Source of the DNA: Escherichia coli
GTDB lineage: Bacteria > Pseudomonadota > Gammaproteobacteria > Enterobacterales > Enterobacteriaceae
Direction: 5' to 3' (one strand)
Length of the DNA: 64,000 nt
Assembly: GCF_011045215.1 (NCBI RefSeq)
Contig: NZ_CP049201.1
A program made the position numbers. Positions within the stretch are counted from its first letter, which is position 1. Each line of letters opens with the position of its first letter. Positions 6,001-9,000 of the stretch are shown here, in pieces.

Positions 6001-9000
6001 GCATTTTCGCGATTGGGTTGGGAATAAGGGATAAAGTATTGCACTTGGTGATATACTTTAATAACAGGACCTCAACGATATGCGCGTGTTTAAAACCAAA
6101 TGGTTTGCAAGGGAAGCCAGGTCTCATGCAATAACAGATGAAGAGTTGTGCCGGGCCATTTTAGAAACGGAGCAAGGTAAAGCTGATGCACTTGGTGGTG
6201 GCGTTTTTAAAAAGCGCCTTCACCAAAATCGTGAGCGTGCAATTATTCTGGCAAAAGGGGGAAGCAATTGGTTTTACACGTTTTTATATGCAAAACAGGA
6301 TATGTCGAACATCAATAGTCAGGAACTGGCTGGGTTTCGTGAACTTGCAAAGCATTATGCCTTCCTGACGAAAGCCCAGCTAACAGCAATGATTAACACT
6401 AAAGAACTGACAGAGATCTGCTATGACTGCAAAAACTAAATTTAAAAGTCCTGCATTTGAGGCTATTCACAGCGCAGCGGCTGGATTGTCCAGCGTCGAT
6501 GCTATTTCTGCCGAAACGATGCGTACTTTTGACAAAGCCTGCCTGACCAGCGTGCAAGACCTACAACCTGTTGAGATAAAAGCACTGCGGGAAAAATTAA
6601 AAGTGAGTCAGCCCGTCTTCGCTCACTATCTCAATACCAGCGTTTCAACTGTACAAAAATGGGAAAGTGGCGCTAAACGCCCCAATGGCATTTCATTAAA
6701 ACTGCTCAGCATTGTGCAAAAACACGGGCTGGATGTGCTGCTGTAAATAGAACGTAGATAATGCGTCACCTACTGTCTGTTCCGATACCGGACGCGGCGT
6801 GAACGCCTTATCCACTCGACAGGTCAGGCACGGTCTGTTGGCTGATAAGACGAAGCGGTTTTAATGCAGCCAGTGAACGCCCTCGGCAGGCTGAAAGAAT
6901 GCGTAATAGCGCATCTGAAAAGCATTAATATCCTGCATTTCAGGTTCAGTTTCGCGCAGAAAACCCAGCGCCAGCCTGACCTGAGCATCGGTAATCGGCG
7001 CGGCAAGGCGGGCTTTTTGTAAAATCCGATGCCATTGCAGCAGGTTCTGTTCGCTACCATCGACAATGACAATTTGCCAGATGAGCAACACCTGCGCGGC
7101 GTTTTGCAGGTGCGACTCATCCGGACGATGCAAATAACGTAAAAATTCGTCACCAGCTGACTTTCCCATTTGATCGACCATCGACTCCACGGGTACGACA
7201 TCGATATTCAGCCGATCGCTGAGACGGCGAATCGCTTTTCTGGCCCCGGATGTCAGCACCCGAAAACCAACCACAAACACTACCGCCAGCGTGGCGAGCA
7301 TTATCCAGATCATGAGTTCTCCTGCGTAATCAGAACTCATGATATCTGGAAATCCTCGCCAGTTACTAATCCACCAGAATAATCTTGAGTGCAAACAGAG
7401 CTGCGACCACCACCACACACAGGTTCAGATCGCGCCAGCGCCCGGTGCACACTTTCATGATGCAGTACGACATAAAGCCGAGTGCAATCCCTTCGGTGAT
7501 CGAGAAAGTAAAGGGCATCATCACCGTGGTAATAAACGCAGGCACCGATTCGGTAAAATCATCCCAGTTAACGCGCGCCAGGCTCGAAGTCATCAGCACG
7601 CCAACAAAGATTAACGCTCCAGCGGTTGCGTAAGGAGGAACCATCGCCACCAGCGGTGAGAAGAACATAACCAACAGGAACATAACGCCAACCACAACCG
7701 CAGTCAGCCCCGTGCGGCCACCGACTGCCACACCAGAAGTACTTTCAATATAGGCAGTAACAGACGAGGTGCCGATAAACGCACCCGCCACCGAACTGAC
7801 GCTATCAACATACAGCGCCTTATTCATATTGGGGAATTTACCGTTACTATCTATTAAGCCAGCTTTATCAGTTACACCAATTAATGTTCCTGATGAATCA
7901 AATAGGTTGATCAGCATAAAGGAGAAAATGATACCGGCGAGTTCAAGTGTTAACGCGCCGCTCAAATCTACTTCACCAATGACGCCGCTAATATCAGGCG
8001 GAATGGAATAGACGCCGCTAAAATGAACATCACCGAAAAATAATCCGCAGCAGGAAGTGACGACGATGGAAACCAGCACCGCGGCATGAAAATGACGTGA
8101 TGACAATACGGTTATAATAAAAAAACCTAATATACCTAACAACACGCCGTGAGAGCTTAAATCGCCAATCATCACCAGGGTGTCTTTATTGGCGACAATA
8201 ACGCCAGTGTTTTTTAATCCCATTAAGGCAATAAATAATCCGATTCCACTGGTGATACCAATACGTAAACTTAATGGAATGTTGGAGATCATCCAGTACC
8301 GGATACGAAACAGCGTGAGCAAAAATAGCCCAATTGCGCCCCAGAATATCGCGCCCATCCCGGTCTGCCAGGAGATACCCATCGCCCCCACGACCACGAA
8401 GGCAAAGAAGGCGTTCAGCCCCATTGCCGGAGCCAGCGCCACGGGTAAGTTAGCAAATATCCCCATCGCAATACTGCCGATACCGGCAATCAAACAGGTG
8501 GTAACAAACACCACTTTCGGGTCCATTTGTGCCGCGCCGAGAATTTGTGGATTCACAAAAACGATGTACACCATGGTTAAAAAAGTGGTCATCCCCGCAA
8601 TCAATTCTGTGCGGACGGTGGTCCCATGCTGAGGTAGTTTAAATAATCGCGAAAGCGTCCCTGATTCATTACTCACGTAATCGGTATTGTCATTATTCAT
8701 TTTTTTGTCCATTGGAGGAGATTTTATCCCTTGCTTTTGTAAAACAAATGACAACAACGGTTCAGTGATAATTATCACATTTCAATTGCACATTAATGGA
8801 TATTCTTTAATAATCTCGCGACGTTTCTTTATGATAAATAATAATCAAATTGATAAAATCAAAATGAGAAAAATATGAATAATTCTATTAACCATAAATT
8901 TCATCACATTAGCCGGGCTGAATACCAGGAATTGTTAGCCGTTTCCCGTGGCGACGCTGTTGCCGATTATATTATTGATAATGTCTCTATTCTCGACCTG

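Follow-up and report, generated by a model that had tools for sequence, protein, structure and literature searches.

Chromosomal toxin-antitoxin pair of the HigB2/ToxP family beside nepI in Escherichia coli, a probable old resident lost once in the K-12 lineage

The window considered here is a stretch of 64,000 nucleotides (nt) from Escherichia coli (contig NZ_CP049201.1, assembly GCF_011045215.1), in which two small overlapping genes occupy the gap between nepI and yicN. The pair is probably a chromosomal type II toxin-antitoxin (TA) operon of the HigBA2 or ToxP-AntitoxP kind, an old resident of its site that was lost once in the K-12 lineage. The support that belongs to the pair itself consists of family membership, predicted fold, catalytic residues, gene pairing, a palindrome upstream of the toxin gene and purifying selection; toxic action, ribosome-dependent mRNA cleavage, and binding of the antitoxin to toxin and to operator are carried over from relatives in Vibrio cholerae and Coxiella. 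RefSeq annotation is already in place for both genes, as a "type II toxin-antitoxin system RelE/ParE family toxin" and a "helix-turn-helix domain-containing protein". The identification offered by an earlier sequence-only reading of the window is correct but ordinary, the pair being a known kind of element.

The open reading frame (ORF) listing of the window gives two plus-strand ORFs, at 6080-6439 (119 amino acids (aa), ATG start) and 6423-6746 (107 aa, ATG start); as the second starts at 6423 and the first ends at 6439, the second start lies 17 nt within the first gene, exactly as the sequence-only reading had described. That reading had also called the first product small and basic, which agrees with an isoelectric point of 9.2 and 19 Lys and Arg against 14 Asp and Glu residues. 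The Pfam hidden Markov model (HMM) search that it suggested returns a toxin family over the full model, PF06296 (E 9.8e-42, 142 bits; query residues 1-113 on model positions 1-120 of 120), and PF06296 is present in all 120 homologs among the matches listed. The resemblance to RelE/ParE/HigB-type toxins proposed at that stage stands for the RelE/ParE superfamily but not for the HigB of Rts1 or for PF05016: PF06296 is the sole family in the Pfam scan of ORF1, with no match to PF05015 or PF09907 (Rts1-type HigB) or to PF05016. PF06296, named "RelE" in Pfam, is the family of V. cholerae HigB2 (VcHigB2), whose members are ribosome-dependent mRNases with the toxin gene first, and the Pfam family of K-12 RelE itself is PF05016 (PMC11980606, a 2025 survey of the RelE/ParE superfamily). 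By its sequence the toxin belongs to the HigB2/ToxP family and is neither a K-12 RelE nor an Rts1 HigB. The link between the toxin and VcHigB2 is drawn solely through Pfam, hhalign and fold comparison, and VcHigB2 itself scores in PF06296 at model positions 8-96 only. NCBIfam has no model that matches the toxin, and PHROGs gives one weak match, phrog_5869.

The toxin is predicted to adopt a RelE/BECR fold, with an N-terminal strand followed by two helices, an antiparallel sheet and a C-terminal helix. In the alignment K49, R51, R64, Y82 and K84 of VcHigB2 correspond to K44, R46, R53, Y70 and K72 of the toxin; K44, R46, R53 and K72 do not vary in an alignment that takes in the window protein, Coxiella ToxP and VcHigB2, their conservation in the broad alignment is at least 90%, and position 70 is Y or F throughout the family. 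Alanine scanning set the VcHigB2 active site at R51, R64, Y82 and K84, an active site with RelE-like Arg, Lys and Tyr residues and no His/Glu pair (PMC5416850); the active-site list also includes K49, and the catalytic role of these residues is documented (PMC10098735). K44, R46, R53, Y70 and K72 are accordingly regarded as putative active-site residues, through which the toxin would most likely cut mRNA under translation after entering the ribosomal A site. Two cysteines, C24 (6149-6151, helix 2) and C114 (6419-6421, in an extra C-terminal strand), are nearly invariant in the enterobacterial subfamily and may form a structural pair.

The toxin may start at ATG 6080 or at GTG 6086, which would give 117 aa, and either may be used. 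RefSeq places the start at GTG 6086 (117 aa) in the E. coli records inspected; in O157:H7 strain MB9-1 the position matching ATG 6080 reads ATA, so the toxin of that lineage must start at the GTG equivalent to 6086. Homologs in other genera retain MR(V/I)FKT, counted from the ATG start.

The antitoxin gene (6423-6746, plus strand) encodes 107 aa of HigA2/AntitoxP type, with a conserved N-terminal segment at residues 1-45 and an XRE helix-turn-helix (HTH) domain at about 46-102; the XRE-type HTH that the sequence-only reading had seen is recovered as HTH_3 at residues 52-96 (E 1.2e-7). Among solved structures the best relative is V. cholerae HigA2 (VcHigA2; 5jaa, 8a0w), of which residues 38-94 align (E 9e-10). 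Identity to Coxiella AntitoxP is 53% from end to end, the N-terminal 45 residues included, and within this segment F7, K8, E13, A14, H16, I28, T32, M33, F36, D37, C40 and L41 are invariant, AntitoxP included. Residues 1-45 match in position the toxin-neutralising region of VcHigA2; by analogy this segment is presumed to bind the toxin and would probably neutralise it. The antitoxin falls below every curated NCBIfam cut-off (TIGR03830 reaches 41 bits against a cut-off of 61.8), and matches to MqsA and NadS are confined to the HTH half and likewise stay below curated cut-offs. MqsRA was considered and rejected, as the MqsA_antitoxin match covers positions 53-123 only (E 1e-5), the N-terminal CxxC pairs are missing and the toxin is not MqsR. 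PHROGs gives a strong match to phrog_2104, a phage family of unknown function (E 2e-26), together with generic HTH matches.

Pairing of the two genes is close to universal in a genome scan that was queried with the closer homolog alignment, took one genome per species, and gave 80 loci from Enterobacterales, Betaproteobacteria, Alphaproteobacteria, Acidobacteria and Gemmatimonadetes. In 79 of the 80 the toxin is followed immediately by an antitoxin homolog, the exception being a locus truncated just after the toxin, and the toxin-first, HigBA-like order named in the sequence-only reading is borne out. Of 72 intact pairs, 71 have overlapping genes, and in 47 the overlap is exactly 17 nt; in the window the shared stretch is 6423-6439 on the plus strand, and its conservation is in keeping with an overlap that probably couples translation of toxin and antitoxin.

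Upstream of the toxin gene a repeat search finds a 15-bp palindrome, TTGCAC-TTG-GTGATA (6039-6053), which is a candidate operator and whose arms in E. coli lengthen to 13 nt (6032-6044 and 6048-6060). The motif CAC-N3-GTG stands upstream of the toxin in 77 of the 80 loci against 0.055 expected per equal-sized stretch, and the longer GCAC-N3-GTGC in 60 of the 80 against 0.010 expected. The upstream consensus among these loci is TAGCAC-N3-GTGCTAtAnT, and its right half-site therefore holds the TG and TA of an extended -10 element; within the arrangement GTGcTAtAnT the conservation is 100% for T, 100% for A, 85% for A and 89% for T. In the window the candidate extended -10, read from the sequence, is TGaTATACT (6049-6057, plus strand), which overlaps the right half of the palindrome, and this one promoter probably transcribes both genes. 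A candidate ribosome-binding site, AGGA (6066-6069, plus strand), lies 10 nt before the ATG at 6080, and the upstream alignment gives its conserved form in relatives as ACAGGATGT; a terminator scan of 5850-6900 found none. The region upstream of Coxiella toxP has the same CAC-N3-GTG palindrome, followed by TATAGT, and AntitoxP shifts a toxP promoter fragment in an electrophoretic mobility shift assay (EMSA) (PMC10098735). On the strength of the conserved palindrome lying on the -10, this likeness to Coxiella toxP with its EMSA, and the operator layout of VcHigA2, it is proposed that an antitoxin dimer would bind at 6039-6053 through its C-terminal XRE HTH, overlapping the -10, and thereby autorepress the operon.

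Within E. coli the pair is a presence/absence polymorphism. An 839-bp segment (5947-6785), delimited by blastn against K-12 and by junction reading, is carried by 1716 of 5426 complete E. coli genomes, always in single copy, always on the chromosome and never on a plasmid; carriers include ST131 JJ1886 and O157:H7, and segment identity among them is 97.3-100%, apart from the decayed copy of HS-02 (80%). The pair is missing from K-12 MG1655, as the sequence-only reading had supposed, and 41 unrelated bp stand there in place of the segment. This K-12-type junction is found at full length in 3667 of the 5426 genomes as one identical 41-bp junction, and the two alleles together account for 99% of complete E. 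coli genomes. The two TA genes are the only sizeable ORFs within the segment.

Beyond E. coli the pair lies beside nepI, and divergent from it, in Citrobacter koseri, C. amalonaticus, Salmonella enterica, Klebsiella indica, K. oxytoca, K. michiganensis, K. grimontii and K. pneumoniae; it has the same place in a cryptic Escherichia lineage. Identities to C. koseri are 88.6% for NepI, 82.7% for YicN, 85.0% for the antitoxin and 72.3% for the toxin, and among the syntenic species toxin identity declines in the same order as NepI identity; divergence between E. coli alleles, up to 2.7%, is within the core-gene range. The repeat search found no direct repeats flanking 5947-6785, and there is no integrase or transposase ORF between nepI and yicN. 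Rhizobiales and Coxiella carry relatives on plasmids; searches of enterobacterial plasmids and of phages turned up no close ones. Global alignment of the 41-bp filler of K-12 shows no convincing remnant of the TA segment; as no deletion scar was found there, the direction of change rests on synteny. Ancestral presence with a single loss in the lineage leading to K-12 is the likelier and simpler history, given the nepI synteny in several genera, divergence that matches the flanks, one shared empty junction, and the lack of repeats and mobility genes; on the same observations the claim of the sequence-only reading that the pair was inserted between nepI and yicN gives way to an old resident, probably, of this gap in Enterobacteriaceae.

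Both genes appear to be maintained by selection. Within Escherichia the toxin gene has a ratio of nonsynonymous to synonymous substitution rates (dN/dS) of 0.07-0.16 and the antitoxin gene one of 0.08-0.30, which points to purifying selection on both; together with the Pfam matches, and with exact protein sequences of the two ORFs that each occur on at least 1000 public contigs, these values argue that the genes are not chance ORFs. In 7 of the 80 species-level loci the toxin is interrupted by a single in-frame stop, at seven different codons, and is otherwise well conserved, and the antitoxin is intact in 6 of these 7, although any individual nonsense codon may be a sequencing error. E. coli TR01 likewise carries a stop codon in place of W64 in the toxin beside an intact antitoxin. 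A nonsense toxin next to an intact antitoxin is the order of decay to be expected of a toxin that does harm when its partner is missing. E. coli HS-02 holds a heavily degraded copy (80% identity), with a frameshifted toxin and no annotated antitoxin, which may be an intermediate in loss or the product of poor assembly. At each distance sampled the antitoxin shows greater conservation than the toxin (85 vs 72% in C. koseri, about 60 vs 50% in Acidobacteria, 53 vs 33% in Coxiella). For type II TA pairs the opposite order of conservation is usually stated.

Several points weigh against reading the pair as an active HigBA2-like operon. A literature search turned up no experiments on the E. coli pair. 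STM3777/STM3778 is the putative Salmonella ortholog, in view of the LT2 gene order; a retracted Salmonella paper included STM3777-STM3778 in its TA inventory and reported that overexpression of STM3777 gave slight growth attenuation only, and these were the only growth data found. A consensus scanner, which requires a -35, found no sigma-70 promoter in 5850-6900, and the -35 is poor; because the scanner found no site, the promoter proposal rests on the extended -10 reading and on its conservation. In the enterobacterial toxin the beta2-beta3 loop is six residues shorter and does not have the basic GKGKRGG stretch of VcHigB2 and ToxP, and relative to VcHigB2 the protein is longer by a helix and a strand at its C-terminus (residues 98-115); with the basic loop shortened and the C-terminus extended, ribosome binding could differ. 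Neither phmmer nor a 41-sequence family profile found a relative of the toxin in the PDB, and similarity to VcHigB2 is weak (hhalign probability 19%). In a model of toxin, linker and antitoxin fused in one chain, antitoxin residues 10-40 form two helices with a block-mean predicted local distance difference test (pLDDT) score of 81-94, a result that speaks to helix formation and not to contact with the toxin.

Among the other readings, the one that survives best accepts the same molecular mechanism and assigns the pair to anti-phage abortive infection rather than to stress response or selfish persistence; it is considered rather unlikely. Toxins of the RelE/ParE superfamily have been discussed as defence toxins (PMC11980606), the presence/absence polymorphism in E. 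coli is typical of accessory defence genes, and the match of the antitoxin to phrog_2104 ties it to a phage family; however, PADLOC-DB has no match for the toxin and generic HTH matches only for the antitoxin, the neighbours of the pair are transporters and purine genes and the pair lies outside any defence island, and its synteny is stable, with no rapid turnover.

It is less likely again that the module has been domesticated or attenuated, with a toxin that is barely toxic or not toxic at all and the pair, or chiefly its HTH member, kept as a chromosomal regulator of its own promoter, of the divergent nepI or of other targets. This would account for the use of one chromosomal site throughout Escherichia, Citrobacter, Salmonella and Klebsiella, for the consistently greater conservation of the antitoxin, for the shortened basic loop of the toxin, for the place of STM3777 among the weakly growth-inhibiting putative toxins of the retracted study, and for the 227-nt divergent intergenic region that the pair has in common with nepI. 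It is opposed by the retention of all five catalytic residues, four of them invariant in the family, by purifying selection on the toxin, and by the repeated single-nonsense toxin knockouts in which the antitoxin survives, which indicate a toxin that is costly when unneutralised; furthermore, two thirds of E. coli do not have the pair, so any regulatory role is not essential.

A related and still less probable proposal would make the pair a TA module inherited vertically beside nepI since before the split of Escherichia, Salmonella, Citrobacter and Klebsiella, with the antitoxin recruited to regulate host genes (for example nepI, a purine-nucleoside exporter gene) and the toxin serving as a conditional brake. 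It is drawn from the slower evolution of the antitoxin and from a 15-bp operator that has hardly changed between Enterobacterales, Acidobacteria and Coxiella; if true, what disappeared from the K-12 lineage would have been part of its regulation and not a selfish element. The weakest reading, a recent mobile islet inserted between nepI and yicN in this lineage, would suit the GC content of the segment (44%, against 52-53% in the flanking genes), the absence of the pair from K-12, as from 68% of all complete E. coli genomes, the repetitive extragenic palindromic (REP)-like element at its right edge and the frequent mobility of TA modules, with relatives on Rhizobiales and Coxiella plasmids, but it is already largely refuted by synteny and deserves very little credence, since the pair keeps the same position by nepI in at least four genera with divergence parallel to NepI, is carried by cryptic Escherichia lineages, differs between E. 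coli alleles to a core-gene extent, is single-copy and never on a plasmid in E. coli, has no close enterobacterial-plasmid or phage relatives among those found, is bordered by neither direct repeats nor mobility genes, and leaves one junction at all empty sites. The preferred account remains a TA operon of long standing, lost once from a lineage that includes K-12.

The neighbours of the pair were identified from the annotation of K-12. The nepI gene runs on the minus strand from an ATG at 5852 to a stop at 4668-4670; this stop is two codons earlier than that of K-12 (394 vs 396 aa), as it also is in E. coli TR01 (a 1185-nt coding sequence). yicN is on the minus strand at 6861-7313, and directly downstream of its stop a REP-like sequence that K-12 also has (6786-6860), identified by junction reading, forms the right border of the 839-bp segment. 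Rfam places a sub-threshold match to naRNA4, which is REP-derived, at 6753-6817 (minus strand; 32.9 bits against a gathering score of 59.5), and a second sub-threshold Rfam match, to a microRNA, was judged spurious. In O157:H7 strain MB9-1 the annotation gives a frameshift in the neighbouring gene adeQ (adenine permease). Some public records that hold the pair or appeared in the searches look misfiled: two 1-kb contigs in a 'Collinsella sp.' metagenome-assembled genome carry copies at 97% (E. coli-like) and 65% (K. pneumoniae-like), which suggests bin contamination; the PLSDB entry NZ_CP141089.1 is a 4.9-Mb E. coli chromosome filed as a plasmid; and the phage collection entry AFYI01000003.1 is a 515-kb whole-genome shotgun contig of Salmonella Infantis.

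The significance of the pair, which about one in three complete E. coli genomes carry, is little beyond good annotation, and for its family, PF06296, structures and functional work already exist from V. cholerae and Coxiella. What is added here is the placement in the HigB2/ToxP family, the probably ancestral syntenic locus lost once, and a conserved candidate operator that merges with an extended -10 and offers a ready target for EMSA and reporter tests. As K-12 does not have the pair, it provides a natural clean background for toxicity, persistence and phage-defence assays of a TA system of major pathogenic lineages.

Among the known systems closest to the E. coli pair is ToxP/AntitoxP (CBUA0028/CBUA0027) of the Coxiella burnetii plasmid QpH1. 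Its toxin is also in PF06296 and shares 33% identity over nearly its full length, the C-terminal helix-strand extension included; the recognition helices of the two antitoxins are almost identical (NTSVSTVQKWESG vs NTSVSTVKQWELG); and in both systems the toxin gene comes first, the genes overlap, and the same CAC-N3-GTG palindrome lies upstream. ToxP is toxic and inhibits translation, and AntitoxP binds both ToxP and the toxP promoter (PMC10098735). The systems differ in that the Coxiella pair is plasmid-borne and acts in plasmid maintenance, whereas the E. coli pair is chromosomal and syntenic; ToxP also keeps the long basic beta2-beta3 loop that is missing from the E. coli toxin, and its promoter has a perfect TTGACA -35 in contrast to the poor -35 in E. 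coli.

V. cholerae HigB2/HigA2 (VCA0468/VCA0469; 5JA8, 5JAA, 8A0X) has a toxin identity of only about 20-24% and profiles that fail to connect; VcHigB2 ends after helix alpha3, where the E. coli toxin adds its helix and strand. VcHigA2 uses one inverted repeat that reaches over the -10, as proposed for the E. coli antitoxin, but the operators themselves differ (TGTACGC-N5-GCGTACA vs TAGCAC-N3-GTGCTA), and the base-contacting R68, E71, N72 and R77 of VcHigA2 are replaced in the E. coli antitoxin by S75, Q78, K79 and A84. The VcHigBA2 pair is located in a superintegron, in contrast to the fixed core-genome site of the E. coli pair.

HigBA of Rts1 (Proteus vulgaris) and HigBA of K-12 (YgjN/YgjM) share the toxin-first order, a RelE-superfamily fold and an HTH antitoxin; the Rts1-type HigB was rejected as an identity for the toxin because Pfam found PF06296 alone. 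RelBE of K-12 shares the RelE fold, and a K-12-type RelBE, with its PF05016 toxin, antitoxin-first order and ribbon-helix-helix antitoxin, was rejected in view of the missing PF05016 match, the toxin-first order and the HTH_3 antitoxin. Feature by feature at the sequence level, membership of the HigB2/ToxP family suits the E. coli pair in HMM match, predicted fold, catalytic residues and gene order, and also in antitoxin architecture and in the layout of the candidate operator.

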